Shown: piece by piece, positions 6,366 through 43,869 of the stretch
Numbering within the stretch: position 1 is the stretch's first letter
Layout: the number at the start of each line of letters is the position of its first letter
Origin: Acidobacteriota bacterium
Lineage (GTDB): Bacteria; Acidobacteriota; Thermoanaerobaculia; UBA5066; Gp7-AA6
Direction: 5' to 3'
DNA: 64,000 nt
Assembly: GCA_050257975.1 (NCBI GenBank)
Contig: JBLMXY010000016.1
Location: 1,236 to 65,235 of the forward strand
Notes under the pieces: model-generated
The model's input: only the letters and a program-made list of their open reading frames with translations
Told to the model about the DNA's origin: nothing
Databases searched by the model: none
Program-made: the position numbers and the translations under genes

Positions 6366-6446
6366 GTCTTCAGTTCTCAGTTCTCAGTCGTCAGTTCTCG
6401 ACGACTTCCTTCTGAAAACTGACAACTGAAAACTGACAACTGTCAA
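6366..6446. repeat. heptanucleotide-periodic hairpin element A
   Basis: Left arm TCAGTTC TCAGTTC TCAGTCG TCAGTTC (6370-6397). Right arm CTGAAAA CTGACAA CTGAAAA CTGACAA CTGTCAA (6412-6446). It fills most of the gap between the dut stop (6447) and the MBL-hydrolase start (6329), ending directly at the dut stop. Confidence 0.9.
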
Positions 6447-6893
6447 CTACTTCCCCGTCGATCCGAATCCCCCCGTGTGTCGTTTCGTCGCGGGAAGCTC
6501 CTCGACCCGCTCGAGACGCGCCCTCGCCACGGGAGCGATGACCAGCTGCGCGATCCGGTCGCCGCGAGAGATCTCGACCGGCTCGGCGCCGATGTTGGCG
6601 ACCAGCACGCAGAGCTCTCCGCGGTAGTCGCTGTCGATCGTGCCGGGCGCGTTGGGCAGGATCAGCCCCATCTTGAGCGCGAGACCGCTGCGCATCCGGA
6701 CCTGTCCCTCGAAGCCCTCCGGGATCGCCACGGCGAGGCCCGTCGGGACGCGCGTCCTTCCGCCGGGCGCGATCACGAGCGCGGTCGAGACGGCCGCCCG
6801 CAAGTCGCATCCCGCTGATCCCTCCGTGGCATAGGCCGGCAAATCCAGCCCCTCGCCGTGGGGGAGGACCTGGAGGGGGACGCGGATGTCCAT
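6447..6893 (-). CDS. dut: dUTP diphosphatase
   Basis: ORF 6447..6893. Contains AGCDLRAA, GTIDSDYRGEL and the C-terminal GGFGSTG motif. Confidence 0.93.
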   Translation of the reverse strand: MDIRVPLQVLPHGEGLDLPAYATEGSAGCDLRAAVSTALVIAPGGRTRVPTGLAVAIPEGFEGQVRMRSGLALKMGLILPNAPGTIDSDYRGELCVLVANIGAEPVEISRGDRIAQLVIAPVARARLERVEELPATKRHTGGFGSTGK

Positions 6894-6952
6894 GAGGGGC
6901 GTCTTTTACCACGTCGCTGCCGGTGCGCCAGGGCTATATCCTCTTGGGATCC

Positions 6953-9382
6953 GTGACGCTGACCCCCGGCGCTCGACTCGGGCGTTTCGAGATTCTCTCC
7001 TCCCTCGGCCGAGGGGGAATGGGCGAGGTCTTCCGCGCCCGGGACACGCGACTCGGCCGCGACGTCGCACTCAAAACGGTCTCTGCCACACTGATTTCGG
7101 ATCCCGGAAGCCTCCGACGTTTCGAGCGCGAGGCCCGCGCTCTGGCGGCACTCTCCCACTCGAACATCGTGCCCGTATTCGATGTCGGTGAAGAAGGCGG
7201 GATCCGTTACGTCGTCACGGAGCTGGTCGAAGGAGAGACGCTGCGCGCGCATCTGGCTTCGGGGCCGCTGCCGCCGGCGGAAGCCGCGGAGATCGCGGCG
7301 CAGGTCGCCGAGGGTCTGGCTGCCGCTCACGAGAAGGGCGTGATCCACCGCGACATCAAGCCTGAAAACCTCATCCTCTCCGGGGGAAGGGTGAGGATCC
7401 TCGACTTCGGCCTCGCCAGCCTGGCCGGGCCCGAGGAGGCCGGGGAGAGCGCGGTGACGGAAGAAGCCGTGACCGAGCCCGGCGTCGTCGCCGGTACGCC
7501 CGCCTACATGAGTCCGGAACAGGCGCGCGGGGAAAAGTTGGACACGCGGTCGGACATCTTTTCTCTGGGCTCCGTCTTCTACGAGATGCTGACCGGTCGC
7601 AAGGCCTTCTCGGCAGTCTCGAGAATCGAGACCCTCTCGGCCATCCTGCGAGACGATCCCGCCTTCCCGACGGCGGGCCCGTCGACACTTCGGCCCGACA
7701 TCGAGCGCGTCGCCCGTCGCTGTCTCGCCAAGAACCGGGACGCCCGCTACCACTCGGCGGCCGACCTGGCCCACGACCTTCGCGCCCTGGCGCTCGGGGA
7801 GAGGGAGCCGACGGGCGCGCCCGCCGGCCCCTTGCCGATGCCCCCCTCGCCCGGCCGACGGCGACGGCTGGGTCTCCTGGCCCTGGCGGCGGTCGCGACC
7901 GCCGCGCTGGCGCTTCTCCTGTGGCGCCTGCAACCGGCCACCGTCCGCGCTCCGCGCACGCTGGCCGTCCTTCCCTTCCGCAGCCTCGGGGCGGACGCCA
8001 TTCCCCGCTTCGGCCTCGGGCTCGCCGACTCCGTGATCGGGCAGCTCGCCCGGCTGCGCCCGCTGACCGTCCGGCCGACGAGCGCGATCCGCCGCTTCGA
8101 GACGGCGCCCGTCGACGCCATCGAGGCCGGACGGGCGCTCCATGTCGATGCCGTCCTCGAAGGAACCGTGCAGAGGGTCGAGGGCGTGACCCGCGTCTCC
8201 GTCCAGTTGACCGATGTCTCGCGCGGCGCGATCGTCTGGACCAGCCGGCTGGAGCTTCCGGAGGGCAAGCTCTTCGCGGTTCAGGACGAGATCGCCCAGC
8301 GGGTGGCCGAAGGGCTGCGGCTCGAGCTCGACCCGCAGCAGAGAAGGTCCCTCGCTTCGGCGCAGCCGGTTTCCGATCGCGCCATGGAGCAGTACGTTGC
8401 GGTCCGCGCAAGGCTCTCCGAAGTCATCCGCTTCTCTCCCGAAGAGAGCCGTGAAGTCACGTCGTTGCTCGACCGCATTCTCGACGAGGCTCCCGGGTTT
8501 GCTCAGGCGATTGCCGCGCGCAGCTACGTCGGGGCGTGGCAGAACTTCTTCATCTCCTCGCCCACCGGCTATGCGGCCGTCCTGCGGGACGCGGATCGCG
8601 CGCTGGCGCTCGACCCGGACCTCGTCGAGCCGCGCCTGGCGAAGGCCGCGATGATCTGGTCCTTCTCCGGAGGCTGGGATTTCGTCGCCGCCGCGACCGA
8701 GCTCGCGACTGCCACTCGTAAGAACCCCGGCCTCGACCTGGCCCACCTGGATCTTTCGCGCCTCTTCACCCACTACGGCTGGCTCCGCGAAGCCGAGCGG
8801 GAGCTCGGAGCCGCGCAGCGGATCAACCCCTCGAGTCCCGAGACCATTCGCCTGGAAGCCTACATTGCGTGGTTTCGCGGCGATCGGCAGCGGGCGCTTC
8901 GTGAGTACCTTCGCCTTCCCGCGGACCTTCGGCGGCAGGCCAATGCGGGCCGCTGGCAGATCCTGCAGATCCGACTGCAATCCGAGAATCCGTTGCCCTT
9001 GATGGAGGAGGTGCAGGCCTGGCTCGCGGAGCGGCCGCCCGACCGGACGCTCCCCACCGCCCTTCTCGCGGTTGCCCGAGCCCGCGCGGGCAACCGCGAC
9101 ATCGCGGATCTCGAGAGGCAGATCGCGGCGGCGGACGAGCGAATCGGCCACTTCCATCACGTCTGGCACCTGCTGGCCGAGGCGCACGCCCAGAGGGGCG
9201 ACGCCGCCCGCTCCGTCGATTTCCTGCGTCGCGCCGCGAAAGCCGGCCTCCCCTGCATCCCCTGCTTCGAGACCGACCGCCTTCTCGCCCCGATCCGAGT
9301 GAGTCCGGGCTACGTCTCGTTGATTCAGGAGCTCCGCGTCCAGGAAACGAACTACCGCCAGGCTCTGAAAGGCACCTTGTAG
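6953..9382 (+). CDS. Ser/Thr protein kinase with a TM segment, a TolB-N/FlgO-like periplasmic domain and a TPR-like C-terminus
   Basis: ORF 6923..9382. Contains GRGGMGEVF, VALK, HRDIKPENLIL, DFGLA and PAYMSPEQ. A TM stretch LGLLALAAVATAALALLLW is followed by LAVLPFRSLG... I prefer the GTG at 6953 (VTLTPGARLGRFEI, a typical kinase N-terminus; TATATC at 6935-6940). GTG 6923 is the alternative. Confidence 0.88.
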   Translation: MTLTPGARLGRFEILSSLGRGGMGEVFRARDTRLGRDVALKTVSATLISDPGSLRRFEREARALAALSHSNIVPVFDVGEEGGIRYVVTELVEGETLRAHLASGPLPPAEAAEIAAQVAEGLAAAHEKGVIHRDIKPENLILSGGRVRILDFGLASLAGPEEAGESAVTEEAVTEPGVVAGTPAYMSPEQARGEKLDTRSDIFSLGSVFYEMLTGRKAFSAVSRIETLSAILRDDPAFPTAGPSTLRPDIERVARRCLAKNRDARYHSAADLAHDLRALALGEREPTGAPAGPLPMPPSPGRRRRLGLLALAAVATAALALLLWRLQPATVRAPRTLAVLPFRSLGADAIPRFGLGLADSVIGQLARLRPLTVRPTSAIRRFETAPVDAIEAGRALHVDAVLEGTVQRVEGVTRVSVQLTDVSRGAIVWTSRLELPEGKLFAVQDEIAQRVAEGLRLELDPQQRRSLASAQPVSDRAMEQYVAVRARLSEVIRFSPEESREVTSLLDRILDEAPGFAQAIAARSYVGAWQNFFISSPTGYAAVLRDADRALALDPDLVEPRLAKAAMIWSFSGGWDFVAAATELATATRKNPGLDLAHLDLSRLFTHYGWLREAERELGAAQRINPSSPETIRLEAYIAWFRGDRQRALREYLRLPADLRRQANAGRWQILQIRLQSENPLPLMEEVQAWLAERPPDRTLPTALLAVARARAGNRDIADLERQIAAADERIGHFHHVWHLLAEAHAQRGDAARSVDFLRRAAKAGLPCIPCFETDRLLAPIRVSPGYVSLIQELRVQETNYRQALKGTL

Positions 9383-9440
9383 ATCGCCGCGCCGGCCTTT
9401 GCGGCTGGCCGAGAAGATCGACCCGCGCCGGACTTGCCGG

Positions 9441-10712
9441 CTACAGGGCCGAGGCGAGGTCCGGAGCCGAGAGGGGGGGCCTGCCGACGTTGCCGACGAT
9501 CGTCAGCGAGAGCACCCGCGGATCGAGCAGGCGCTCGGCCTCCCGCGCGACGTCGTCGCCGGTCACCGCTTCGACGCGCGCGATCATCTCCTCGGCCGGC
9601 TGGATCCGGCCGTAATAGAACTCGTGACGGGCCTGCATCGACATGCGGGAGACGGTGGACTCCAGGGCGAGGATCAGGTTGCCCTTCAGGTTCTCCTTCG
9701 CCCAGGCGAGCTCCCTCGGGCGCACCCCCTCGCGCTTCAACTTCTTCAGCTCCCGCAGCGTCACGTCCAGCACGCGGGCGAGGTTCTTCGGAGCGCAGGC
9801 GGCGGTGATCGTCTCGTAGCCGCCGAGGCGATAGGAATTGAGGGAAGAGGCCACCGAATAGGCGAGGCCGCGCTTCTCGCGCACCTCCTGGAAGAGCCGG
9901 GAGGACATGCCGCCGCCGAGCACGATGTCGAGAAGGCTCGCGGCGTACCGGCGCTCCGACGACTGGGACGGCCCCGCGACACCGAGACACACGTGGGCCT
10001 GCTCGAGGCCGCGGCGCGAGCGGACCTCGACGTGCTGGTGAGGGTGGGGGCGGCCGCCGCGGCGTCCCGGCGGCCCGCCGCGGGCGGGACGGCGGCGGAA
10101 GAGCCTCTCGACGGCGTCGACGACCGGTGCGGCCAGCACGTGCCCGGCCACGGAGAAGATGAGACTGCCCGGGGTGTAGCGTTCGTGGTGGTACCGGTAG
10201 AGGTCGGTCACGCCGATCGCGCGAACGGTTTCCGCGGTTCCCAGGATCGGCTCTCCCAGGGGATGCGTCCTCCAGAAGGAGCGGACGAACATCTCGTGCA
10301 CGAGGTCGTCGGGATTGTCGTTGGCCTCGCCGATCTCCTCCAGGATGACTCCGCGCTCGACCTCGATGTCCTCGGACTCGAAGGCGGGCGCGAGCACCAT
10401 GTCCCCGAGCAGGTCGAGCGCGCCTTCGAAGTTCGAGTCGAGGCTGTGCGCGTAGAAGCCCGTGTACTCCTTCGTCGTGAAGGCGTCCACGTCTCCGCCG
10501 AGCCGGTCGATCTCGCGGGCGATCTGGACGGTGGACCGGCGCCGGGTCCGCTTGAAGAGGACATGCTCGAGAAAGTGCGAGATGCCGCGGCGTTCGGCGG
10601 GCTCGTCGCCCGACCCGGCGGCCACGAAGATGCCCAGAGCGAAGGAGCGCACGTCCCGCATCTCGTCAACGAGGACGGTGACACCATTCCCGAGCACGGA
10701 TTTTTGGACCAT
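9441..10712 (-). CDS. M16-family (pitrilysin/insulinase-like) zinc peptidase
   Basis: ORF 9441..10778, with the likely start at ATG 10712 (MVQKSVLGNGVTV...). Inverted zinc motif HFLEH. Confidence 0.88.
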   Translation of the reverse strand: MVQKSVLGNGVTVLVDEMRDVRSFALGIFVAAGSGDEPAERRGISHFLEHVLFKRTRRRSTVQIAREIDRLGGDVDAFTTKEYTGFYAHSLDSNFEGALDLLGDMVLAPAFESEDIEVERGVILEEIGEANDNPDDLVHEMFVRSFWRTHPLGEPILGTAETVRAIGVTDLYRYHHERYTPGSLIFSVAGHVLAAPVVDAVERLFRRRPARGGPPGRRGGRPHPHQHVEVRSRRGLEQAHVCLGVAGPSQSSERRYAASLLDIVLGGGMSSRLFQEVREKRGLAYSVASSLNSYRLGGYETITAACAPKNLARVLDVTLRELKKLKREGVRPRELAWAKENLKGNLILALESTVSRMSMQARHEFYYGRIQPAEEMIARVEAVTGDDVAREAERLLDPRVLSLTIVGNVGRPPLSAPDLASAL

Positions 10713-10803
10713 AAAGGGCTCCCCGGCAGGCGAGGCCAATTTTACCCCCTGCGGGCCCGCACGCCGCCAGATTAGCAAGTCTTTGTATTGGAATGGCTTA
10801 AGT

Positions 10804-11586
10804 CTATCGGCTCGCGGGCGGAGGCTGCTGTCCCGGAGGCATCAGGGGCGGGTTTCGGAAGCCGCCGGGCGGCCCCGGACGGCGGTCCTCGGTATCGGCA
10901 TCGCCGGCGACGAACACCCACTCGTCGTAAAACTTGTGCCCGCGCCACTCCCGGAGCGCCTCTTCGTGCACGTTGGACCGAACACCCTGGATGGGGCCCT
11001 TGACCTCCCCGCTCGGGCTGCCGAAGGGCCCGGGGGTCGGCGTCGGGCGCGGCGGCGGCAGGCCGGTCCCGGGTTGCTGTCCTCCCCCCAGCCGGACGGG
11101 AAGGGCTTCGGCAGAGCCGAGGATCACCAGGTGCCACTTGTCGCAGCGGCACATCGGATCCTGCCAGAGCTTGCGGATCGTCCGCGGGCGGTTCTCGTAC
11201 ATCTCCTTGAGCGTGTTCGGGTATCGCCCGAATCGATGATGGAAGGCCGTGATCGCCCGCGCGTACTGGCGGCCCCGGAAGATCAGCTCTTCCTCCCGCT
11301 CCCGCTTCATGACCGTCGCGATCACGGGACCGACCGCGGCGAGCAGGATCGTGAGGATCGCCATCCCGATGACGAGGGCGACGAGGGTGTAGCCGGCGTC
11401 GCGCCGACTGAGGACTTGGGACTGAGGACCGAGGACTCTACTCGCTGGAGCCTGAATAGTCCTTAGTCCCCGGTCCTTGGTCCCTGGTCGGGAGCGGGCG
11501 ACGGCGAAACTGAGGACTCGCTCGGCTGTTGCCCGGTGAGTCCTCAGTCCTCGGTCCTCGGTCCCCAGTCGAAGGACCCGCCCCAT
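10804..11586 (-). CDS. GspG-like pseudopilin 3 (start unresolved; the open frame runs through repeat element B)
   Basis: ORF 10804..11592. Prepilin-like segment RRDAG/YTLVALVIGMAILTILLAAV, then a GspG-like body (LIFRGRQYARAITAFHHRFGRYPNTLKEM). No ATG/GTG/TTG lies between the repeat and the G/Y site. The only canonical starts are TTG-GTG-ATG at 11592-11584. The ATG at 11586 overlaps the upstream TGA as TGATG. Confidence 0.6.
   Translation of the reverse strand: MGRVLRLGTEDRGLRTHRATAERVLSFAVARSRPGTKDRGLRTIQAPASRVLGPQSQVLSRRDAGYTLVALVIGMAILTILLAAVGPVIATVMKREREEELIFRGRQYARAITAFHHRFGRYPNTLKEMYENRPRTIRKLWQDPMCRCDKWHLVILGSAEALPVRLGGGQQPGTGLPPPRPTPTPGPFGSPSGEVKGPIQGVRSNVHEEALREWRGHKFYDEWVFVAGDADTEDRRPGPPGGFRNPPLMPPGQQPPPASR
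11407..11570. repeat. heptanucleotide-periodic hairpin element B (two hairpins, GGTCCTy class)
   Basis: Hairpin 1 arms are 11407-11438 (GAGGACT TGGGACT GAGGACC GAGGACT) and 11458-11489 (AGTCCTT AGTCCCC GGTCCTT GGTCCCT). Hairpin 2 pairs CTGAGGACTC (11510-11519) with GAGTCCTCAG (11538-11547), followed by TCCTCGG TCCTCGG TCCCCAG. Confidence 0.85.
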
Positions 11587-11993
11587 CACCAATCCTTGTA
11601 CAGCGTCCCGTCCAGGGCCTTGTCCGGCGAGCCGCTGTGGACGTCCACGATGCCCGGCGTCGGCGGCTCGGAGCCGGCCTGCTCGTCAGGCGGGATTTCC
11701 TCCATCTGCAGCACCCAGGTCTCGGCCGACTTGGTCATCGGGTCGACCGGGATCTTGCGCAGGTACCCGTCGGCGACGAGCGTCTGCAGGTCGGGCGGAA
11801 AGACCAGCTTGTCGCCGTGGTACTGGTCGATGACGCTGCGCAGGGTGAAGAGGTCCTCGCGCAGCGTCGCTTCCCGGGCGCGCTGCGGCGAGTCGCGCAG
11901 CGCCGGGACGGCGATCGCCGCGAGGATGCCGATGATCGTCATGACGACGAGAAGCTCCAGAAGAGTGAAACCGGCCTGCGCCCCGCGCCTCAT
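11586..11993 (-). CDS. GspG-like type II secretion/type IV pseudopilin 2
   Basis: ATG 11993 gives MRRGAQAG/FTLLELLVVMTIIGILAAIAVP (class III signal, Glu+5), then a GspG-like body and a C-terminus ending LYKDW. One-nt TGATG overlap with the upstream gene. Confidence 0.85.
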   Translation of the reverse strand: MRRGAQAGFTLLELLVVMTIIGILAAIAVPALRDSPQRAREATLREDLFTLRSVIDQYHGDKLVFPPDLQTLVADGYLRKIPVDPMTKSAETWVLQMEEIPPDEQAGSEPPTPGIVDVHSGSPDKALDGTLYKDW

Positions 11994-16593: not shown

Positions 16594-16597
16594 CGGC

Positions 16598-17524: not shown

Positions 17525-17555
17525 TCGTCAGTTCTCAGTTGTCAGTTCTCAGTTC
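17525..17555. repeat. heptanucleotide repeat element C (single arm)
   Basis: TCAGTTC TCAGTTG TCAGTTC TCAGTTC at 17528-17555, in the 39-nt gap between the gspE-like stop (17558) and the pilM-like start (17518). No complementary arm is present. Confidence 0.8.
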
Positions 17556-21228: not shown

Positions 21229-21759
21229 CTAGATGTCGAGCGAGCCATCCACGATCCAGACCACGCGCGGCTCTCCCGCGCCCGGATTCCAGTCGTAGAC
21301 GGTCGCCCCGCCCGACGCCCGAGCGGCGCCGTCGGGCCCGGCGACGGTGGAAAAGTCCGCCGAGGGAGCGCGCCGGACCTCGGCCTTCTCGTTTCCCTCC
21401 GGCGGAGGCTTCAGCCCCGAAGGCACGGCGAGCGTCAGAAGCACGACCGCAGCGGCGGCGGCCGCCCGGATCCCGCGGCGCCCCGCGACGGCGCGGCGAG
21501 GGCGGGCGATGCGCCCCTCGGCCTGCCGCAGCGCGATCCCGGCTCGGACCGAAGCCACGACGCAAGCCACGTCGGCCGAAGAGACGGCCTCGGGAGACAG
21601 CGTCCCGAAGAGCACGACCGGATCGATCGCGGCCGCCTCGGCGCGGCACGCCGGGCAGCCGGCCAGGTGCTCGCGCACCTCCCGCCGGGTTCCCGCCTCG
21701 AGAGCCTCGCGGCCGTAGGCCGGCAGGCTTGCCCGCACCCGCTCGCAGATCGCGCTCAC
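21229..21759 (-). CDS. anti-sigma factor (zf-HC2 type, single TM)
   Basis: GTG 21759 (GTGA overlap with the sigma stop). Contains HLAGCPAC (HxxxCxxC), a TM segment AAAAAVVLLTLAV and a periplasmic tail. Confidence 0.75.
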   Translation of the reverse strand: MSAICERVRASLPAYGREALEAGTRREVREHLAGCPACRAEAAAIDPVVLFGTLSPEAVSSADVACVVASVRAGIALRQAEGRIARPRRAVAGRRGIRAAAAAAVVLLTLAVPSGLKPPPEGNEKAEVRRAPSADFSTVAGPDGAARASGGATVYDWNPGAGEPRVVWIVDGSLDI

Positions 21760-22436
21760 GACTTTCGACCCCGCCGAAAGAGGCCCGGATGGACCTTCTC
21801 GATCTCCCGGCGGAGGATGCGCCGGGCGTTGAACAGATGGTTGCGGACGGTGGACTCGCCGCATCGCAGGATCTCGGCGATCTCCCGGGTGTCGCAGTCC
21901 TGCATCTCCCGAAGCACGAAGGCGGCCTTCTGCTTGCCGGAAAGCCGGTGGGAGACCCGCTCGAAGAGGCGCGCGAGCTCCCCGTCCTCGGCCGCGCGGG
22001 TGGTCTCGGACACCGACGACTCCTCGCGCTGCCGCACCAGGTGGAGCGTCGCGCCGTGCGCGCGCTCCCGGGAGCGGGCGCTGCGCAGGAAATCGATCGC
22101 GAGGTTGGTCGCGATGCGATAGAGCCAGGTGTTGAAGGAGTAGGCGTCGTCGTAGCGGTCGAGCTGCTCCCAGACGCGAAGGAAGACCATCTGGGCGACG
22201 TCCCGGGCGTCCTCGCCGTCCCCCACCACCCGGCGGGCGATCGCGATGACGGCCGGGGTCTTCCGGGCGACCAGCGCCTCGAACGCCAGCATGTCGCCGC
22301 GGCGAGTCTCGGCGACCAGCTCCCGGTCCGTGGCCTGGGCCGCCTCGAGCCTGCGCCGGTCTTCGCTGTAGACAAGCTCCATCGGCTCTCTATACGGAGC
22401 GCGCCCTCCCGGCGTTGAGGGCTTTTCGTCGGTCAT
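21756..22436 (-). CDS. ECF (sigma-70 family group 4) RNA polymerase sigma factor
   Basis: ORF 21756..22508, with the likely start at ATG 22436. Region 2 is FEALVARKTPAVIAIARRVVGDGEDARDVAQMVFLRVWEQLDRYD...FNTWLYRIATNLAIDFLR. Region 4 is FVLREMQDCDTREIAEILRCGESTVRNHLFNARR. Confidence 0.9.
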   Translation of the reverse strand: MTDEKPSTPGGRAPYREPMELVYSEDRRRLEAAQATDRELVAETRRGDMLAFEALVARKTPAVIAIARRVVGDGEDARDVAQMVFLRVWEQLDRYDDAYSFNTWLYRIATNLAIDFLRSARSRERAHGATLHLVRQREESSVSETTRAAEDGELARLFERVSHRLSGKQKAAFVLREMQDCDTREIAEILRCGESTVRNHLFNARRILRREIEKVHPGLFRRGRKS

Positions 22437-22446
22437 AAACTCTTGA

Positions 22447-22475
22447 ATTCTAAAGTCTGAAGGCGGAAGTTGGAA
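22447..22475 (-). promoter_or_regulatory. possible sigma-70-type promoter of the ECF/secretion operon (TTCCAA-N17-TAGAAT)
   Basis: On the minus strand, TAGAAT is the reverse complement of 22447-22452, 10 nt before ATG 22436. TTCCAA is the reverse complement of 22470-22475, 17 nt further up. The -35 match is weak. Confidence 0.3.
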
Positions 22476-22642
22476 GGCCGAAACGACCGGGTGCGCGGCG
22501 GGCCGCACGCCGCAACCAATAGAACGCGGGGCCTGCGCCGGCGGATTCCTCGCTTCGCGCGCCGCGGCGGAAGGCTCGGGCGAGGGTGGCGGCTCGCGGC
22601 CCGCGCTCCGTCACGCGACCGCGCCTCCGTCATAATCCGAGA

Positions 22643-25916: not shown

Positions 25917-25984
25917 TTATCAGTGGTCAGTTATCAGTTGTCAGTTCCGGAACTGAGAACTGAAAACTGACAACTGAAAACTCA
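25917..25984. repeat. heptanucleotide-periodic hairpin element D
   Basis: TTATCAG TGGTCAG TTATCAG TTGTCAG TTCCGG AACTGAG AACTGAA AACTGAC AACTGAA AACTCA. The centre CAGTTCCGGAACTG is a perfect 14-nt palindrome. It spans exactly from the acyltransferase stop (25916) into the HNH stop (25982-25984). Confidence 0.9.
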
Positions 25985-30986: not shown

Positions 30987-31066
30987 GTGCGGTGTCCGGG
31001 GTTCGGTTTTCGGTGTCCGGGTCAGGATCCGCGTCCGAGCACCGGGCACCGATCACCGAGCACCGG
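30987..31066. repeat. heptanucleotide-periodic hairpin element E (CGGTGyC class)
   Basis: Left arm CGGTGTC CGGGGTT CGGTTTT CGGTGTC CGGG. Right arm GTCCGAG CACCGGG CACCGAT CACCGAG CACCGG. It is preceded by a 6-bp stem CTGTCC-TTTA-GGACAG that contains the pilB stop codon. Confidence 0.85.
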
Positions 31067-33546: not shown

Positions 33547-33612
33547 TTGCCAGTTCCCGGTCGTCAGTTTTCAGTTCCGGACTGATCACTGATGACTGAC
33601 AACTGACAACTC
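33547..33612. repeat. heptanucleotide-periodic hairpin element F
   Basis: TTGCCAG TTCCCGG TCGTCAG TTTTCAG TTCCGG / ACTGATC ACTGATG ACTGACA ACTGACA AC. The centre is CAGTTCCGGACTG. Starts 8 nt after the pilC stop. Confidence 0.85.
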
Positions 33613-33626
33613 CAGGGCACTCCGGC

Positions 33627-36748: not shown

Positions 36749-36750
36749 GA

Positions 36751-36792
36751 GGTCCCTGGTCCTTAGTCCCTCGTCCTTTTTCCTTAGTCCGC
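36751..36792. repeat. heptanucleotide repeat element G (single arm, GTCCyTn class)
   Basis: GGTCCCT GGTCCTT AGTCCCT CGTCCTT TTTCCTT AGTCCGC, starting 3 nt after the pilR stop. No complementary arm downstream. Confidence 0.8.
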
Positions 36793-36817
36793 AGCGGTCG
36801 GGTTACGATCTTCGGCG

Positions 36818-37303: not shown

Positions 37304-37316
37304 CCGCGGGCCCGGA

Positions 37317-37748: not shown

Positions 37749-37757
37749 GGGCGTGCC

Positions 37758-39539
37758 TCAGGGCTCGAAGAGGTAGAGCCCGTCCCCCGTCGTGCCGACG
37801 TAGATCCTTCCTCCGGAAGCGGCGGCGGCCGTCGCGAGAGCCAGGCCCGGACGCGGGCTCGTGAGCGCGAGGCGGCGGTTGCCCTCCTCCCAGACGAGCT
37901 TGCCGTCCACGTCCTGAAGCGAGCTGTAGGCGGCCGACGCCGAGGAGGTCCCCGCGAGGAACATCCCTCCTGCGAGAACCGCCCGCCGGCGTCCGGACCA
38001 GCTCCGCCCGTCCCAACGAAAATCGGTGTCGGCGGTCCTGACTTCGAGCACCGGCCCTCCGTCCGCGCCTGCCAGGAGCTCTGCCGTCAGGACGCCCGAG
38101 GGCGCGCCGGCAACCGGGGCGAAGGAGAGACCGCCGTCGCTCACCCGAAAGACTCCGGCCGAGGTCACGAGGATCGGGGAACGATACGGGGCGCCGAAGA
38201 CGGCCACGGGCTGGCCGGGTGGCGGCGCGGGCGGAGCCATCCAGGAAGCGCCGCCGTCGCGCGACAACCGCAGGCCGGCGGCTGAAGCGAGCATCAGCAC
38301 GGTCTTGCCGGCACCATCACGAAAGGCGGTCAGCGACGCCGCGGGCGGAAGCGCGTCCTTCGAAACCCGTCGCACCCTCGCGCCCTCCGCCACCCAGACC
38401 CCGCTCTCCTCGCCGCCGTAGGCGCGGAAGAAGTAGACCCGGGAAGGGTCGTCGGGATCCGGAACCAGATCGGCGACCCGACCTTCGGAGAGGCCCGTCG
38501 AGCCGCGCTGCAGGGTCGCTCCGGCGTCGTCGGAGACGAAGACCCCCTCCCCTTCCGTGCCGACGTAGAGCCGCCCGCTGCGCGCGTCGACGGCGAGCGC
38601 CGTGACGACCAGAGAATCGCGCGACACGCGCTCCCATGACTGGCCCCCGTCGGTCGAGCGGTGGAGGCCGCCGACCGTGGCCGCGAAGATCGTTCCGGGC
38701 CGCGTCGGATCGCGGCGCACCGCCTGCGAGCGCCGGTTTGTGAAGCCCCGCGTGAACCGGGTCCAGAGGTCCCCGCCCGACTGGCTGTGGTAGACCCACC
38801 CGCAGGTCGACACCCAGATGTCGCTCGGGTCCTTCGGGTCGAAGTCCCAGGCGTACACGGTCGCATCGAGCACCATGCCGTCGGCGATCCGCGTCCAGGT
38901 CCTCCCGCCGTCCTTCGTGCGGAAGGCCTGCCGCCAGGTGCCGGCGTAGAGCGTGTTCGGGTCGGCGGGATCGAACGCCAGAGACTCGACGCGTTCGAGG
39001 CCTGGAGTCTCGGTGCCCGAGGGCGCCCAGGTCCGGCCGCCGTCGCGCGAGAGGCGAACGCCATCGTCCCCTCCGGCGGCGATGAGCGGCTTCTGCCCCG
39101 GCACGACGGCGAGCGCGCGCGTCGCGACCGATTTCTGCCAGCGCGCGAGCGTCGTCCAGGTCGAGCCCCCGTCCTCCGTCACCGCGACCAGGCCGCCGGC
39201 GAACTGGCCGGCCAGGGCGGCCCAGAGGCGTCCCGGGGCCGTCGGATCGGCGATGAGCGCGGTGACGACATACCCGGGAAACGCGGGACCCGAATGGAGC
39301 GCGTGCCAGCTCGCCCCTCCGTCCGTCGAGCCGTAGAAATTGCCGCGCGAAGTTCCCAGGTACACCGTCCCGGGTAAAAACGGGTCCACGGCGAAGGCGC
39401 GAACCTCCGCGCCCCAGAGAGGAAGCCTCAGCCATCGGGCGGCGGGCGCCACGCCGCCTGCGGCGAGCGTCAGAAGGGCGGCGCACAGAACGGCGCGCCG
39501 GCGCGCGCCGCGCGCCCCGAGCGGAAACGGCCTGTGCAT
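37758..39539 (-). CDS. exported BNR/Asp-box repeat beta-propeller protein (Ycf48/sialidase-like fold)
   Basis: ORF 37758..39539. Signal peptide, then about 8 SxDxGxTW-type boxes (STDGGASW, TEDGGSTW, SRDGGRTW, TKDGGRTW, STDGGQSW, SRDGGASW...). Confidence 0.8.
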   Translation of the reverse strand: MHRPFPLGARGARRRAVLCAALLTLAAGGVAPAARWLRLPLWGAEVRAFAVDPFLPGTVYLGTSRGNFYGSTDGGASWHALHSGPAFPGYVVTALIADPTAPGRLWAALAGQFAGGLVAVTEDGGSTWTTLARWQKSVATRALAVVPGQKPLIAAGGDDGVRLSRDGGRTWAPSGTETPGLERVESLAFDPADPNTLYAGTWRQAFRTKDGGRTWTRIADGMVLDATVYAWDFDPKDPSDIWVSTCGWVYHSQSGGDLWTRFTRGFTNRRSQAVRRDPTRPGTIFAATVGGLHRSTDGGQSWERVSRDSLVVTALAVDARSGRLYVGTEGEGVFVSDDAGATLQRGSTGLSEGRVADLVPDPDDPSRVYFFRAYGGEESGVWVAEGARVRRVSKDALPPAASLTAFRDGAGKTVLMLASAAGLRLSRDGGASWMAPPAPPPGQPVAVFGAPYRSPILVTSAGVFRVSDGGLSFAPVAGAPSGVLTAELLAGADGGPVLEVRTADTDFRWDGRSWSGRRRAVLAGGMFLAGTSSASAAYSSLQDVDGKLVWEEGNRRLALTSPRPGLALATAAAASGGRIYVGTTGDGLYLFEP

Positions 39540-39595
39540 GGAGTGTCTATTTTAGCGTCCGGCGGGGTTCCGGGGCCTTCGGCTACTATCTTTCG

Positions 39596-40465
39596 ATGCA
39601 GAAAGTCCGTGTGGCCGTCTTCCCCGCGGCGGGCCTGGGGACCCGATTCCTGCCCGCCACCAAGGCCCAGCCCAAGGAGATGCTGCCGCTGGTAGACCGC
39701 CCCCTCGTGCAATACGTCGTCGAGGAGGCGCGGGCGGCGGGAATCGAGCGCATCGTGATCGTGACCGGACGCGGCAAGAACGCCATCGAGGACCACTTCG
39801 ACACGTCCTTCGAGCTCGAGAAGATGCTCGAGGAGCGCGGCAAGGCGGACCTGCTCGAGCAGGTGCGCGCCGTCTCGGATCTGATCCCGGTCTCCTACGT
39901 GCGCCAGAAGATCGCCCTGGGGCTGGGGCACGCGGTCCTTCAGGCCCGCGAGCTGGTGGGAAACGAGCCCTTCGCCGTGATGCTCGGCGACGACATCGTG
40001 GACGCGGCCCAGCCGTGCATCGGCCAGATGCTGCGCCTCTACGAGCGGCGCGGAAATCCCGTGATCGCGCTCCAGGAGGTGCCGAGGGCCGAGACGCGGC
40101 AGTACGGGATCGTCGCGGGCGAGAAGGTCGAAGACCGCGTCGTCGCGATCCAGGACATGGTCGAGAAGCCGGCGCCCGAGAAGGCTCCGTCGAACCTCGC
40201 GATCATCGGCCGGTACCTGCTGCCCCCCGAGATCTTCGACATCCTGGAAGAGACGCGCTCGGACGTGGGCGGCGAGATTCAGCTCACCACCGCCCTGAAG
40301 ACGCTTCTTTCCCGAAGGCCGATCGACGGCTACCTCTTCGAAGGAAAGCGCTACGACGCGGGAGACAAGCTGGGATTCTTGAAGGCGACGGTCGAGTTCG
40401 CGCTGAAGCGCGAGGACCTGGGAAAGCCGTTTCGGGAGTACTTGAAGGGATTGAAGCTGGATTGA
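39596..40465 (+). CDS. galU: UTP--glucose-1-phosphate uridylyltransferase
   Basis: ORF 39596..40465. Contains VFPAAGLGTRFLPATKAQPKEMLPLVDRP and VEKP, the GalU hallmarks. Confidence 0.92.
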   Translation: MQKVRVAVFPAAGLGTRFLPATKAQPKEMLPLVDRPLVQYVVEEARAAGIERIVIVTGRGKNAIEDHFDTSFELEKMLEERGKADLLEQVRAVSDLIPVSYVRQKIALGLGHAVLQARELVGNEPFAVMLGDDIVDAAQPCIGQMLRLYERRGNPVIALQEVPRAETRQYGIVAGEKVEDRVVAIQDMVEKPAPEKAPSNLAIIGRYLLPPEIFDILEETRSDVGGEIQLTTALKTLLSRRPIDGYLFEGKRYDAGDKLGFLKATVEFALKREDLGKPFREYLKGLKLD

Positions 40466-40467
40466 AT

Positions 40468-40529
40468 CGGTGTCCGGTGTTCGGTGCCCGGTGTCCGGGC
40501 CCCTGACACCTGACCCCGGATACCGAACC
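40468..40529. repeat. heptanucleotide-periodic hairpin element H (CGGTGyC class)
   Basis: CGGTGTC CGGTGTT CGGTGCC CGGTGTC CGGG / partial complement CTGACAC CTGACCC CGGATAC CGAACC. Fills the convergent gap between the galU stop and the fmdB-like stop. Confidence 0.8.
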
Positions 40530-40829
40530 TCACTCCCTGGTTGTCTTCTTCTCCTTCTTCTCGGTCTTCTCGGTCTTCTCGGCCTTCTCGGCTTTCTCGG
40601 CCGTTTCGCCTTTCGATTCGCTGCGGTGCGTCCCCTTCTCTTCCTTCTTCGCGCGCGCGTAATCGGTGACGTACCAGCCGCTGCCCTTGAACTGGATCGC
40701 CGGCGCGGAGAAGGCCTTCTTCAGCTTGCCGCCGCAGTGGGGGCAAACCTTCAGAGGCCGCTCTCCCACGCGCTGGATGACCTCGGTCTTCTTTCCGCAC
40801 CTGGCGCAGTCGTATTCGTAGATGGGCAT
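40530..40829 (-). CDS. FmdB-family zinc-ribbon protein with a K/E-rich tail
   Basis: ORF 40530..40829. MPIYEYDCARCGKK...CPHCGGK (CxxC_CxxC_SSSS family). The tail AEKAEKAEKTEKTEKKEKK is encoded by 9-nt tandem repeats. Confidence 0.85.
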   Translation of the reverse strand: MPIYEYDCARCGKKTEVIQRVGERPLKVCPHCGGKLKKAFSAPAIQFKGSGWYVTDYARAKKEEKGTHRSESKGETAEKAEKAEKTEKTEKKEKKTTRE

Positions 40830-40837
40830 GGTAAAGA

Positions 40838-40901
40838 AGTTATCAGTTATCCGTCATCGGTCTTCAGTTCCGGAACTGTGAACCGATGACTGACAACTGA
40901 C
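40838..40901. repeat. heptanucleotide-periodic hairpin element I
   Basis: AGTTATC AGTTATC CGTCATC GGTCTTC AGTTCCGG / AACTGTG AACCGAT GACTGAC AACTGAC. It has the same 14-nt centre, CAGTTCCGGAACTG, as element D. It is intercistronic, between the DUF4388 stop (40904) and the fmdB-like start (40829). Confidence 0.85.
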
Positions 40902-40903
40902 GG

Positions 40904-41662
40904 CTACTCAACCGTTCCCCCGCCCGTGTTGTAGCGGATCTTCTTCGCGCCGGGAAGCGCCGCGCTCTTCTGCACGAGCCCCAGGCAGAAGAAGGCGTAG
41001 AGAAGGCGCGCGTTCTCGGCCGCGGCGCCGGGGCCCTTTCCGCACAGCGGCTGGAGCGCGGTGCGGCCGTCGACGCGCCCGTAGTAGGCGCGCTCCTCGG
41101 GAGCGAAGAGAGAGAGGAGCTCGCCCGGAGTCTGTTCGAGCACCGTCGCCGCGTGCCCCAGACGCTGGACCAGACGGCGTACGTCCCGGGCCCGTCGGAT
41201 TCCCTCGAGGATCACTTCGGGGATCGAGAGGTCTATCCGGATCTCCTCCTGCGATCGGCGCTCGCCGATGTCGAAGACGACCTGCCCCGACTCCCAGTCG
41301 AACGCGCCCCAGAGGATTTCCCGGATCTGGCCCGAGACCGCCTCCTTCAGGCCGTTTTCGTCGAGAACGCGCATCTCCAGAAGAATCCGGCCCAGGCGCA
41401 GCCCTTCCCGCACCTGGCGCGCGGCGTCGCGGCCGAGCTCCGGCGACAGAATCCTGCGGCGCAGCAGGTAGGCGCCGAGGCTGACCTCGCGCTCGTTGGT
41501 CGCTGCGAACACGACAAGCCCGTTTTCCAGATAGATCCGCCGCTCCCGTCCCTCGCGCGAAACGCGCACGACCCCGGGAACGCGATAGCGATGGATCGTC
41601 GAGAGGATCTCGGCCAGAGGAGTGACCGCGAGATCGCCGCGGTACTCGAATCGTTTCTCCAT
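40904..41662 (-). CDS. DUF4388 (PatA-N-like) domain protein
   Basis: ORF 40904..41662. GDLAVTPLAEILSTIHRYRVPGVVRVSREGRERRIYLENGLVVFA matches the DUF4388 pattern as I recall it. Confidence 0.65.
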   Translation of the reverse strand: MEKRFEYRGDLAVTPLAEILSTIHRYRVPGVVRVSREGRERRIYLENGLVVFAATNEREVSLGAYLLRRRILSPELGRDAARQVREGLRLGRILLEMRVLDENGLKEAVSGQIREILWGAFDWESGQVVFDIGERRSQEEIRIDLSIPEVILEGIRRARDVRRLVQRLGHAATVLEQTPGELLSLFAPEERAYYGRVDGRTALQPLCGKGPGAAAENARLLYAFFCLGLVQKSAALPGAKKIRYNTGGGTVE

Positions 41663-41762
41663 TGTGCGCTTTGAGCACTATGGTAGCGCGAAGCGCGCGC
41701 GGCGCAAGCCGGTCCCGCACCGGACCGCCCGCGGCCGCCCGGCGAACCCGTAGAATCCGCTC

Positions 41763-42974
41763 ATGATCACCGTGGCCGAGGCCCTGTCCCGAATCGCCCG
41801 CTTCGAGCCGCTCGGAACCGAGGAGGTTCCGGTCGCCCAGGCGGGGGGACGAGTGCTCGCCCGGGAGATCCGCGCGGACTGCGACTGGCCTCCCTTCGAG
41901 ACCTCCGCCATGGACGGCTACGCGGTTCGCCTCGAGGACGTGTCGTCGCCCGGCGCGTTGCTCGCGGAGAGGGCTCTTTCCGTCGCCGCCGGCGATCCCC
42001 CGCCGCCTCCGATCGCGACCGGCGAAGCGGTGCGCGTGATGACGGGAGCCGCCATCCCCGAGAACACCGAGGCCGTGATCCCGGTCGAGCAGAGCCGGCG
42101 AGAGCAGGGGCGCGTGCGCTTCGAGACCGTTCCGGCCCCCGGCGCCCACCTGCGGCGGCGGGGGGAGAGCATCGCGGCGGGAAAGTCGCTGGTTCTGCCG
42201 GGCCGGAGACTCACACCGACCGACGTCGCGCTGGCGGCGATGGCGGGAGCCGATCCGGTCACCGTCTTCCGGATGCCCCGCATCGCGATCGCCGCCACGG
42301 GCAACGAGCTCGTCGCCGCCGGCCGGAGGCCGGGACCGGGTCAGCTTCGAGATTCGAACGGGCCGATGCTCGCGAGCCTCTGCCGGGAGCGCGGGTGGAG
42401 GGCGCGGCTGGAAAGCCGCGTCGCCGACGACGCGGCGGGCGTCGATCGCCTGTTCGCGCGCGCGGGCTCGGCCGAGGACCTGCTTCTGACGACGGGCGGC
42501 GTCTCCGCGGGAGACTTCGACCTTCTTCCGGCCGCGGCCGAGCGGGCCGGTTTCGAGATTCTCTTCCACGGCGTCTCGCTGCGGCCGGGAAAGCCGGTGG
42601 CGCTCGGCCGCCGCGGCGCCGCGCTCTGGCTTGGCCTGCCCGGAAACCCGGTCTCGACCGCGGTCTGCTTCCACCTCTTCGGCCGCGAGGTCGCCGGGAG
42701 GCTCGAGGGTGATTCCTGCCCCGCCCCGCCGCGGGTCACGGCGCGGCTCTCGCGGCCCTTGCCTGCGGCCGGACCGCGCGAGACCTACCGCGACGCACGC
42801 TGGGAGATCGTGGACGGGGAAAGCCGGGTCGAGCCGCTGCGCTCGGCGGGAAGCCACGACATCGGCGCGCACTCCGGGGCCAACGCCTTCATCCGAATCC
42901 CGGCGGGCTCCCCGCCTCTCGAGGCCGGCGCCGGGGTCGAATGCCTCCTCATCGGCGAGGTCGGCCGCCGGTAG
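41763..42974 (+). CDS. moeA: molybdopterin molybdenumtransferase MoeA
   Basis: ORF 41763..42974. Contains PPFETSAMDGYAV and GGVSAGDFD. TAGAAT at 41751-41756, only 6 nt before the ATG, suggests a near-leaderless transcript. Confidence 0.88.
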   Translation: MITVAEALSRIARFEPLGTEEVPVAQAGGRVLAREIRADCDWPPFETSAMDGYAVRLEDVSSPGALLAERALSVAAGDPPPPPIATGEAVRVMTGAAIPENTEAVIPVEQSRREQGRVRFETVPAPGAHLRRRGESIAAGKSLVLPGRRLTPTDVALAAMAGADPVTVFRMPRIAIAATGNELVAAGRRPGPGQLRDSNGPMLASLCRERGWRARLESRVADDAAGVDRLFARAGSAEDLLLTTGGVSAGDFDLLPAAAERAGFEILFHGVSLRPGKPVALGRRGAALWLGLPGNPVSTAVCFHLFGREVAGRLEGDSCPAPPRVTARLSRPLPAAGPRETYRDARWEIVDGESRVEPLRSAGSHDIGAHSGANAFIRIPAGSPPLEAGAGVECLLIGEVGRR

Positions 42975-42982
42975 CCGAGAAC

Positions 42983-43765
42983 ATGGCGATCCCGAGCGAA
43001 CGAAAGACCCACGCGATCGCCCACCGCGAGGTCCGCGCGGCCGACGGGACCGCAATCACGTATACGCTCTGGCGCCGCCCGGCCCGGGAGCTTCTGGTCC
43101 TCGCGCCCGGCTTCTGGCGGGTGCGGTTGGATCGCGAGAACCTCTTCCTCGCGAATTTCTTCGTGCGCCGCGGATACGACGTGGCCGCGCTCGACTTTCG
43201 CGGCCACGGCGACAGCAAGGGCGCCTACACGTTCGGCACCTTCGAGGCGCAGGACCTGAAGGCGGTCCTGGATGATCTCGTGGGCGAGGGGAAGCCCTAC
43301 GGGCGCTTCGCCCTGCTCGGCCTTTCGATGGGGGGCACCATCGCGGCCGACACGCTGTCGCGCTGGCCGGAGCTTCCCTGCCGCGCTCTCGTGATGGTCT
43401 CCTCCCCCGCCGATCTGCGCGATCTGCGCCCCAAGCCGTGGAAACCTGGCGCGATCCGCCAGGTCCGCCTGCGCCGCGCGCTGCGCATGCCGCGCGTTTC
43501 CCGCCGCACCCGCATCGCGGCGACGCCACGCGGCCACGAGGCGGTCTCCGGCCTCTCCATGCCCAAGCTGATCGTGACCGCGGAAGGGGACTGGCTGGTG
43601 GACCCGTCGCATGGAAGGCGGCTCGCCCAGGCCGCCGCGGCGCCGGTGGACGATGTGCACCTCCATCTTCCCGGATCGCTGCACGCCGACGCTCTGGTCC
43701 GGGCGGTTCCGCTGCGACTGCTGCGCCTGCTCGACCGGTGGTTCGCGCGAAACGCGCCGCCGTAG
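42983..43765 (+). CDS. alpha/beta-fold hydrolase
   Basis: ATG 42983 inside ORF 42941..43765. Contains FRGHGDSKG and GLSMGG (GxSxG). Confidence 0.75.
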   Translation: MAIPSERKTHAIAHREVRAADGTAITYTLWRRPARELLVLAPGFWRVRLDRENLFLANFFVRRGYDVAALDFRGHGDSKGAYTFGTFEAQDLKAVLDDLVGEGKPYGRFALLGLSMGGTIAADTLSRWPELPCRALVMVSSPADLRDLRPKPWKPGAIRQVRLRRALRMPRVSRRTRIAATPRGHEAVSGLSMPKLIVTAEGDWLVDPSHGRRLAQAAAAPVDDVHLHLPGSLHADALVRAVPLRLLRLLDRWFARNAPP

Positions 43766-43869
43766 CAGGGGTCAGGGATCAGGGGTCGGGGGCCAGGGTT
43801 CAGCTTTCAGCCAATCCAGCCCAATCGCTGACAGCTGATCACCGATAGCTGATAACTGATAACTGATAA
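43766..43869. repeat. heptanucleotide-periodic hairpin element J
   Basis: GGGTCAG GGATCAG GGGTCGG GGGCCAG GGTTCAG CTTTCAG ... CTGACAG CTGATCA CCGATAG CTGATAA CTGATAA CTGATAA. It occupies the whole 104-bp convergent gap, from stop 43765 to stop 43870. Confidence 0.85.

Follow-up and report, generated by a model that had tools for sequence, protein, structure and literature searches.

Closest described systems

In many bacteria, most of the long simple repeats have units of seven nucleotides or, at least, this class outnumbers the others, according to Mrazek et al. (2007) as cited in PMC4679880 and PMC4692102. The closest described system to the repeats reported here is the GGGAATC or (GGGANTN)n family of Xanthomonas (Rehm et al. 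2015; PMC4692102), whose heptamers are degenerate at one or two positions, mostly form arrays of about four units and are intergenic in 89-93% of cases. About three quarters of them occur as two convergent arrays with the G-rich arm first, which are potential stem-loops, and their mean distance from the upstream open reading frame (ORF) is 28 nucleotides (nt), much less than that from the next ORF (PMC4692102). Corresponding gaps are occupied across related species by arrays differing in length and sequence, and no function was found (PMC4692102). The present analysis deals with ten elements, here called A to J in the order of their positions, in a DNA stretch of 64,000 nt (hereafter the window) from a Thermoanaerobaculia genome (Acidobacteriota) of the soil Acidobacteria type. 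These elements are heptanucleotide tandem-repeat arrays; seven or eight of them are inverted pairs forming long imperfect hairpins, and C and G are single arrays. A preliminary description of the window had considered them unassignable to any described family, a view that finds no support since inverted or multi-unit heptamer arrays have been published (PMC4692102, PMC4679880, PMC2700814). The kind of repeat is already described and the Acidobacteriota lineage is a further example of it; a search of the available literature for such heptamer repeats in Acidobacteria found none, and the comparative rules set out below are new as far as checked.

With the Xanthomonas family the elements share degenerate heptamers, convergent pairs beginning with the G-rich arm and proximity to the upstream ORF. 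The Xanthomonas repeats, however, are dominated by one G-tract unit that was read as a G-quadruplex former, whereas dozens of units occur in this lineage, which belongs to a different phylum, and the arrays begin at the stop codon (median of about 0 nt compared to a mean of 28 nt). G-tracts are restricted to element J. Arrays of TCAGTTn, GTCCTy and CGGTGyC lack them according to the Xanthomonas criterion of at least four tracts of at least three G per array, and G-quadruplex potential was detected only in the left arm of J (units CAGGGGT, CAGGGAT, CAGGGGT, CGGGGGC and CAGGGTT).

A second relative is the TAACTGA direct repeat, which MacGregor (2015) described before start codons in marine Beggiatoaceae, cyanobacteria and Bacteroidetes (PMC4679880). 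It has the AACTGA core in common with the window, and element C shows the published placement, a direct array in sense orientation before a start codon without Shine-Dalgarno sequence; A, F and I likewise place an nAACTGA array upstream of the next start with their 3' arms. On the other hand, the first base of the unit is G, C or A here and not T, the other nine elements are inverted or follow stop codons, and the Beggiatoa genome contains one inverted repeat in 170 sets (PMC4679880), whereas inverted pairs prevail in the window. An exact scan for (TCAGTTn)x4 revealed the array on at least 120 contigs from cyanobacteria, Bacteroidota, Planctomycetota, several Acidobacteriota classes, Poribacteria, Verrucomicrobiota and Beggiatoaceae, mostly as single direct arrays many of which end just 5' of an ATG. 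This extends the published distribution to far more phyla, among them Planctomycetota, Acidobacteriota, Poribacteria and Verrucomicrobiota. For Geobacter metallireducens, Aklujkar et al. (2009; PMC2700814) described multicopy elements of 4-5 tandem heptamers (GGACCGG; MTYCTGA), to which a putative role in regulation or as binding sites was assigned; in contrast to the window, some of these copies lie inside genes.

The elements had also been likened to the cyanobacterial STRR and to enterobacterial REP/BIME sequences, and both comparisons are judged apt. STRR (short tandemly repeated repetitive sequences; Mazel et al. 1990, mentioned also in PMC4692102) reportedly comprise several heptamer units per genome which are tandem, intergenic and variable between close relatives; their host phylum and GC content differ. 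The REP, BIME and REPIN sequences of enterobacteria and pseudomonads are extragenic imperfect palindromes located at 3' ends and within operons. Their sequences are specific to the species, and they can be dispensed with; they stabilise the upstream mRNA and affect translation if they are near the stop codon. REPs are fixed units of 20-40 nt copied by RAYT transposases, whereas the copies studied here share only a unit core of 5-6 nt, differ in spacers and in the order of the variable positions, and grow in place; no transposase was found among the 64 called genes of the window.

Period, composition and folding of the elements

All ten elements are present as described, with an abundance of units far beyond chance. 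Tandem Repeats Finder reported a period of 7 (or 14) at each of them, and a lag-k autocorrelation of the window yielded 19 segments at lag 7 but none or one at lags 4, 5, 8, 10 and 11; lags 6, 9 and 12, at which coding periodicity is expressed, gave 2-6 segments. Both methods confirm the claimed period. Compared to shuffled sequence, the unit patterns are 4- to 500-fold enriched. With at most one mismatch, TCAGTTnTCAGTT matched 22 times (0.04 expected), always within A, C, D, F, I or J and never in a gene. For GTCCTnnGTCCT, 13 of the 18 matches (4.7 expected) fall into B and G, and seven of the 12 matches to CGGTGnCCGGTG (2.7 expected) into E and H. Hence the check for units inside genes, which had been proposed earlier, turned out in favour of the elements: TCAGTTnTCAGTT is absent from genes and the excess copies of the other two patterns reside in B/G and E/H, respectively. 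The three unit classes that had been distinguished do exist as units, but they are separated by only one or two substitutions per unit (AGTTCTC/AGTCCTC; TTCAGTT/TTCGGTG), and element J carries a mixture of AGCTGAn and AACTGAn units.

According to a codon-model gene map checked with Pfam, 94.8% of the window is coding, and of the 3,335 non-coding nt about 762 are contributed by the elements. B is situated in a leader region, and the other nine elements lie outside called genes. The statement that the elements are intergenic and not more than 10 nt away from a stop codon is thus to be corrected for B, which ends 15 nt from the upstream stop and is contained in an ORF. Nor are all elements poor in GC, as had been assumed: B, E and H have 64-71% GC, compared to 69.5% overall, and only the TCAGTT-type elements and J are AT-richer.

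When folded as RNA, the elements A, D, E, F, H and I as well as B1, one of the two hairpins of B, gave z-scores of -4.5 to -8.0. Folding is weak for the second hairpin (B2) and for J (z about -2.3 to -2.4) and absent in C and G, and it is to this extent that most elements form the hairpins ascribed to them. The identical palindromic centre CAGTTCCGGAACTG of D and I was verified, the version of F being one A shorter, and the variable unit positions, which had been described as unpaired, do pair at chance level. None of the Rfam 15 covariance models matched anywhere in the window at gathering score. Apart from the ten elements, a weak period-7 run (AAGTCTGAAGGCGGAAGTTGGAAG) occurs in a low-GC, conserved divergent promoter region at positions 22383-22642 (also at 1080-1244 of the related locus L001), which is flanked by an ECF sigma factor gene (21756-22382) and a Kdo transferase gene.

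Arrays in related genomes

For comparison, 160 loci of relatives (2.7 Mb; labelled L001-L080 and L201-L280) were collected in two independent sets of 80, one based on PilC and one on the M16 peptidase. The PilC search yielded relatives that are 60-95% identical, nearly all of them labelled Acidobacteriota; nearest to the window are metagenome-assembled genomes assigned to Thermoanaerobaculia or to Acidobacteriota without further classification. In the PilC loci (1.32 Mb, 9.7% non-coding), the intergenic arrays numbered 157 (of 180) at lag 7, compared to 1, 14 and 5 at lags 5, 8 and 10. The M16 loci (1.41 Mb, 8.3% non-coding) gave a similar result, with 147 (of 194) at lag 7, none at lags 5 and 10, and 27 at lag 8. 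Period-7 arrays are consequently the dominant non-coding repeat across the 160 related loci. Tandem arrays with a period of 8 nt constitute a minor intergenic class (the 14 and 27 arrays mentioned), e.g. in L026, L030, L055 and the M16 set.

The load of arrays is patchy even among close relatives, since L004 and L005 contain 12-14 arrays per 21 kb, and L001, L003 and L008 few or none. Unit sequences are wholly different between genomes (GGATTTT, GTAGGTG, GGATGAA, GGCCAAA, GCTGGAA, GAGAGTT and others). Within one genome a single unit often recurs, for instance GGATTTT at three loci of L013 and GTAGGTG at two loci of L005, as TCAGTTn does in the window at A, C, D, F, I and J.

Stop codons and arm order

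The related loci contain 74 inverted array pairs, 40 in the PilC set and 34 in the M16 set. In co-directional gaps, pairs of the two sets are located at a median distance of -1 and 0.5 nt, respectively, to the stop codon upstream, and 26 of 31 and 30 of 34 pairs (altogether 56 of 65) lie within 10 nt of this stop, while the distance to the next start is 27 and 18 nt; a looser definition of pairs gave a similar picture. The stop adjacency noticed in the window is therefore a property of co-directional inverted pairs, but not a rule for the whole family, because divergent gaps are occupied and B is apparently translated. In divergent gaps, arrays and hairpins occur at about the rate expected from the numbers of gaps, sometimes just downstream of a -10-like box.

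Among the stop-abutting arrays, of which the first 45 of 121 were inspected, roughly one in four has a stop codon that itself represents a degenerate first unit, as in TAGCGAT followed by CAGCGAT or TGAATGC followed by GGAATGC. Seeding of arrays by the stop codon was nevertheless rejected as a general rule, since the in-phase match to the consensus amounted to 0.83 of 3 positions compared to 0.74 for permuted stops (p about 0.04).

The two arms of a pair are not equivalent. The 5' arm contains more G than C in 64 of the 74 pairs and more C than G in nine, with one tie. Both sets revealed this order (35 versus 5, p about 1e-6, and 29 versus 4, p about 1e-5), the ratio of G to C being about 2:1. 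As the structure is palindromic, the G-first order holds on both strands. It is the order of the 'convergent' arrays of Xanthomonas, and the ordinary hairpins of the related loci display it only faintly (93 versus 62). Concerning the stems, single mismatches in 51 hairpins (L001-L080 and the window) are skewed towards like-with-like oppositions, with 22 GG, 21 AA, 14 TT and 10 CC among 136.

An array inside a prepilin leader

Element B (11407-11572, minus strand) is built of GAGGACy/rGTCCTy units, comprises the two hairpins B1 (11407-11489) and B2 (11505-11572), and is located within the leader-peptide part of the third pseudopilin ORF. The ATG of this ORF (11586-11584) overlaps the TGA of the upstream pseudopilin gene. 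From this ATG the frame is open across the whole of B to the sequence RRDAG|YTLVALV, and the Pfam N_methyl motif follows directly after B. Upstream of the prepilin motif the only canonical starts are a TTG, a GTG and the ATG, which overlap the preceding TGA. The codon score of B is negative, i.e., resembles that of non-coding DNA. Automatic gene calling lets the third pseudopilin begin at 11364; the true start appears to be the ATG at 11586 (region 11340-11592, minus strand), which predicts a leader of about 60 residues of translated repeat. The alternative that B is non-coding and the gene starts at ATG 11364 was rejected, as this would remove the N-terminal methylation motif that is kept in all relatives.

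In relatives without an array, the leader comprises 6-12 residues and starts at the equivalent overlapping codon. Heptamer arrays are present at this pseudopilin junction in 20 of 75 genomes. In 16 of these 20, the cleavage motif is in frame with the overlapping start (p = 2.5e-5 against an expectation of 1/3), and 14 are in frame, free of stop codons and provided with the overlapping start codon, compared to about 13% expected. At least seven array-bearing junctions have no alternative start after the array. To judge from the reading frames, element B is an array that is tolerated inside a cleaved leader peptide and would be translated with it. With its frame kept, B therefore gives the clearest support to the notion that arrays persist where changes of 7 nt are harmless. 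For annotation this means that arrays can mask true gene starts, as at the pseudopilin gene, and they can break metagenome assemblies.

Turnover and growth at orthologous junctions

The lineage represents a natural experiment, with hundreds of related genomes carrying or lacking arrays at matching gene junctions. Five orthologous junctions were compared across 20-75 genomes. As anticipated in the preliminary description, related genomes bear heptamer elements in the corresponding gaps; these may be hairpins with unrelated units. Other relatives have plain GC hairpins at these junctions, some of which are accompanied by a T-tract, or a palindromic repeat of another kind, or are bare. Period and position persist, sequence and presence turn over, and growth takes place on the spot.

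In the pilC/pilS gap, which contains F in the window, L002 has an orthologous hairpin of the TCAGTTn class. Heptamer hairpins with other units are present in L004, L005, L010, L011, L022 and L076, and plain GC hairpins, several with terminator-type T-tracts, in L001, L003, L008, L012, L013, L018, L019 and L023. The pilB/pilT gap (element E) harbours hairpins with other heptamer units in L005, L018, L022, L023 and L076 and plain hairpins in two genomes. In many genomes it is short and contains just a Shine-Dalgarno sequence; where a hairpin is present in addition, it lies between the stop codon and the Shine-Dalgarno sequence. In the closest relative, L001, the place of E is taken by a short hairpin (GGTTCGGGATCGTCTCCCGATCGG) whose flanks are conserved, and E looks like such a short hairpin that was inflated by duplication of units in both arms. 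The gaps corresponding to D, H and I hold unrelated sequence in L001 and measure 36, 15 and 16 nt, respectively.

The dut/MBL gap (element A) contains CAGCTnT/AnAGCTG hairpins in L204, L212, L230, L239, L240 and L276, compared to CAGTTnT/AnAACTG in the window. The difference is one substitution that extends to all units of both arms and is compensatory between them, i.e., a concerted change. L226 has a single-unit hairpin (AGGTGTC..GACACCT) in this gap, and L219 and L277 have arrays of that unit. Still other genomes are bare at this junction or hold an AT-rich terminator or a palindromic repeat of another type. This palindromic repeat (GTCATCCCGAGCGAAGCGAGGGATC ... GATTCCTCGTCGCTTCGCTCCTCGGAATGACAG) is longer and occurs in similar gaps of many relatives (L002, 3902-4260; dut/MBL gaps of L209, L215, L223, L242, L243, L259, L267, L269, L271, L277 and L278). 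It is absent from the window and looks like a MITE or REP-type family.

The gap between dut and the MBL-purSQL genes had been regarded as internal to an operon. This is probably not the case. At 6330-6365, 7-9 nt before the GTG of the MBL-fold gene, there is a box of the TAATCT/TATAAT type (TGCTAATCT / GCTATAAT) that is conserved in about 50 related genomes, which suggests a promoter whose mRNA would be leaderless or nearly so and, with it, separate transcription units for dut and MBL-purSQL. A Ser/Thr protein kinase gene (6923-9382) separates the M16 peptidase gene from dut in the window. In L201 and L204, dut directly follows the peptidase gene, and the kinase gene is in all probability an insertion or rearrangement specific to the lineage of the window.

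At the gspE junction (element C), the ancestral state in many relatives is a GAC-TGATG overlap. Arrays or hairpins with other units have been inserted there in at least 11 genomes (L205, L212, L219, L232, L233, L239, L242, L255, L276, L277 and L278), and in L255, L278 and L242 the units echo the last codons of gspE (GTCGAC).

Origin and possible function

Any mechanism proposed for the elements has to comply with the rules described above, that is, a period and a position that are kept, hairpins adjacent to stop codons, arms in G-first order, local growth and a preserved leader frame. The explanation that we favour, with about even confidence, is that the elements are satellites made by slippage which spread to places where a 7-nt indel does not matter, and whose role is at most that of dispensable stem-loops in the RNA, similar to REP. 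Replication slippage specific for 7 nt would create and resize the arrays in place, and the units would be homogenised one by one within an element by concerted evolution. Arrays would persist where 7-nt indels do no harm, namely in the non-coding gap beginning with the stop codon, as selection against frameshifts would confine them to the space beyond the stop. Both arms may be inflated from short stop-proximal hairpins. In the transcript, a pair could fold as a stem-loop that begins at the stop codon and might serve, similar to REP/BIME, as a barrier to 3' exonucleases and at most as a weak or partial terminator or insulator between cistrons. It would be a dispensable add-on and not an essential signal. 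The sequences themselves show the period, the placement, the arm order, the turnover between genomes, the growth in place and the kept frame of B, whereas slippage and any role at the RNA level are inferred. As to the preference for 7 nt, the length of DNA held by the polymerase has been suggested as its cause in work cited by PMC4679880 and PMC4692102.

Canonical intrinsic terminators were rejected as an explanation. A consensus terminator scan of the 5.5-44.5 kb region of the window did not retrieve hairpins with T-tract above chance, and none of the ten elements was matched; U-less stem-loops are therefore the usual 3' structure in the window. The 3'-end or mRNA-stabilising role proposed earlier is conceivable, if unproven; a T-rich tail follows E alone, and many relatives are bare at equivalent junctions.

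Several results weigh against the favoured explanation. Slippage alone accounts neither for complementary arrays lying side by side nor for the G-first order (64 of 73), and where one unit recurs at several loci within a genome, either dispersal or convergence has to be invoked. The depletion in divergent gaps that is expected for pure 3'-end elements was not seen in the related loci. Hairpins also occur inside operon junctions with an ancestral TGATG overlap, and their insertion at such junctions argues against strong termination, while the many relatives lacking any structure at the matching junction imply that a function, if there is one, is dispensable. In 38 co-directional hairpins, 21 single mismatches of the G.U type and 14 of the A.C type were counted on the sense strand. 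This is not a significant excess, for which reason wobble asymmetry was rejected as a sign of selection at the RNA level and the better folding of the sense strands of A, E and I does not generalise. Finally, the check for covariation across the arms failed: permutation of the 7-nt blocks of one arm resulted in nearly the same number of matches as the actual unit-by-unit arrangement, and the arms therefore correspond to each other at the consensus level only.

The same results bear on the other explanations that may be put forward. The elements could be neutral or selfish slippage satellites, by-products of a lineage-specific bias in replication or repair that fill unconstrained DNA without benefit. 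The patchy presence between close relatives would fit this well, as would the occupation of every type of gap including divergent ones, the gaps filled exactly from stop to stop, the tolerance in a cleaved leader only with the frame kept, and the lack of wobble asymmetry and unit-level covariation. Yet precise inverted pairs with strongly non-random folding make up about half of the elements, the arm order is asymmetric (64 versus 9), and the dut-gap hairpin has been retained in at least seven species with both arms changing together; because neutral drift is not expected to yield pairing, order and retention of this kind, we are inclined to doubt pure neutrality, though it deserves serious consideration. 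Mobility would account for other features. If REP/REPIN- or MITE-like elements were copied by a transposase (e.g., RAYT) to sites just past stop codons, a single unit would recur at several loci of a genome, as observed for TCAGTTn in the window, GGATTTT in L013 and GTAGGTG in L005, arrays would appear at junctions that ancestrally had no spacer, and the centre TCAGTTC-CG-nAACTGA could be common to D, I, F and the L002 counterpart of F. However, there is no transposase or RAYT of any kind among the 64 called genes of the 64-kb window, and the elements have neither conserved ends nor target-site duplications. Their copies have nothing but the unit consensus in common, with a different order of variable positions. 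For E and the L226/L219 pair, the comparison shows growth out of a short hairpin at the site itself, and some arrays repeat in their units the final codons of the gene before them (GTCGAC). Copying by a transposase thus appears quite improbable. Still less is to be said for a phase-variation switch, in which gain or loss of a 7-nt unit would shift the frame of the pseudopilin leader and toggle this gene and perhaps the downstream genes. Element B is indeed in frame between the sole canonical starts and the prepilin cleavage motif, and four of the 20 array-bearing junctions are out of frame, two more being in frame but closed. But the out-of-frame cases may use other starts, similar arrays fill many non-coding gaps where switching is impossible, and the organisms are free-living without obvious need for antigenic variation, so that such a switch is very unlikely.

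A protein may also be envisaged as the origin of the period. According to this proposal, the arrays are sites of a putative single-strand-binding protein with a 7-nt footprint (cold-shock-domain or S1-like OB-fold), which binds the first-transcribed G/T-rich arm before the second emerges and thereby makes the hairpin, termination or translational coupling conditional; single nAACTGA arrays like C would be ribosome landing pads independent of a Shine-Dalgarno sequence, as proposed for Beggiatoaceae. It is in agreement with this idea that the period alone is conserved across genomes, as would be expected of a footprint more than of a sequence, and that the G-rich, C-poor arm is the 5' arm in 64 of 73 pairs, on both strands. 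Element C, a sense nAACTGA array 6 nt before an ATG without Shine-Dalgarno sequence, matches the placement of TAACTGA (PMC4679880), and the nAACTGA x4 arrays of the 120 or more contigs, from many phyla, often lie just upstream of an ATG. Furthermore, crystallographic and array data as cited in PMC4679880 indicate that CspB binds heptamer repeats with one protein per heptamer. On the other hand, units are very diverse within one genome, so that binding would have to be nearly sequence-independent, and no cold-shock-domain gene was detected among the 64 called genes of the window. In addition, the hairpin is no substitute for a Shine-Dalgarno sequence because the latter, where present in relatives, comes after the hairpin. 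On balance we consider a footprint protein unlikely. A bolder version, which we think quite unlikely, is that the 7-nt period and the arm order are invariant because such a protein loads onto the first arm and decides on hairpin closure. The pairs would then be protein-gated terminators or coupling devices and, together with the single nAACTGA arrays, might form a post-transcriptional layer common to Acidobacteriota, Planctomycetota, cyanobacteria, Bacteroidota, Xanthomonas and Beggiatoaceae.

Individual elements of the window

Three elements of the TCAGTTn type are associated with co-directional genes and fold into hairpins. Element A (6366-6446, no strand assigned) is made up of inverted heptamer arrays, (TCAGTTn)x4-5 and (nAACTGA)x5, with a 12-nt spacer, and lies between the dut stop codon (6447-6449) and the box, similar to a promoter, that precedes the MBL-fold gene. 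Its sense (minus) strand folds with -47.7 kcal/mol (z = -8.0), the antisense strand with -31.6 kcal/mol. Element F (33547-33612, plus strand; z = -6.5) is a TCAGTTn/nACTGAn hairpin separated by 7 nt from the PilC stop and by 14 nt from the start of PilS, which follows it. Element I (40838-40901, minus strand) has the centre described above in common with D; it begins 2 nt past the stop of a DUF4388 gene, ends 8 nt short of the ATG of a Zn-ribbon gene and folds with -34.9 kcal/mol (z = -6.6). It includes a compensatory variant, CATCGGT pairing with ACCGATG.

At 25917-25984, element D fills a convergent gap as a palindrome without spacer, (TCAGTTn)x4/(nAACTGA)x4-5 (no strand assigned). It follows directly after the TAG of a lipid A acyltransferase gene, and its last unit holds the TGA of an HNH endonuclease gene (-37.0 kcal/mol, z = -8.0). 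Two further convergent gaps are filled by H and J, which likewise have no strand assigned. Element H (40468-40529) is a CGGTGyC/GrCACCn hairpin between a nucleotidyl-transferase gene, whose stop ends at 40465, and a Zn-ribbon (FmdB-type) gene with its stop at 40530 (-37.1 kcal/mol, z = -4.5). Element J (43766-43869) fits its gap exactly from stop to stop. Its left arm is (CAGGGrT)x5, its right arm mixes (AGCTGAn) and (AACTGAT), and the helices of 4-6 bp are periodically broken, mostly by 2x2 loops (-40.6 kcal/mol, z = -2.4).

The second hairpin of the CGGTGyC/GrCACCG class, element E (30987-31066, plus strand), is situated 7 nt past the PilB stop, folds with -51.5 kcal/mol (z = -4.7) and is the only one of the ten elements trailed by a T-rich run (CTCCTTTTCTT). 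The two single-arm arrays without hairpin are C (17525-17555, minus strand) and G (36751-36792, plus strand). Element C reads (nAACTGA)x4 on the mRNA strand, starts 2 nt past the stop of the GspE-type ATPase gene and ends 6 nt short of the ATG of the next gene (z = -0.2); G consists of (rGTCCyT)x6, 2 nt past the PilR stop (z = +0.5).

Further features of the window

Downstream of the elements, a two-part motif, GAAAC(C/G)-N14-15-GCATCCAAY, was noticed upstream of five plus-strand genes in the region 48858-61299. The copies of GCATCCAAY lie at 48918, 50273, 53847, 58157 and 61248, which makes five exact matches compared to 0.45 expected. They precede a zf-HC2 anti-sigma gene followed by an ECF sigma gene (49267-49926), a glycogen debranching enzyme gene, an aquaporin gene, a gene for an unknown protein and a DM13 protein gene. 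Together, this set looks like a candidate regulon of an autoregulated ECF sigma factor. Within the DM13-domain gene (61300-62193), a 363-nt tandem duplication (1.9 copies, 84% identical) extends from 61467 to 62157 and corresponds to the two DM13 domains of its product.

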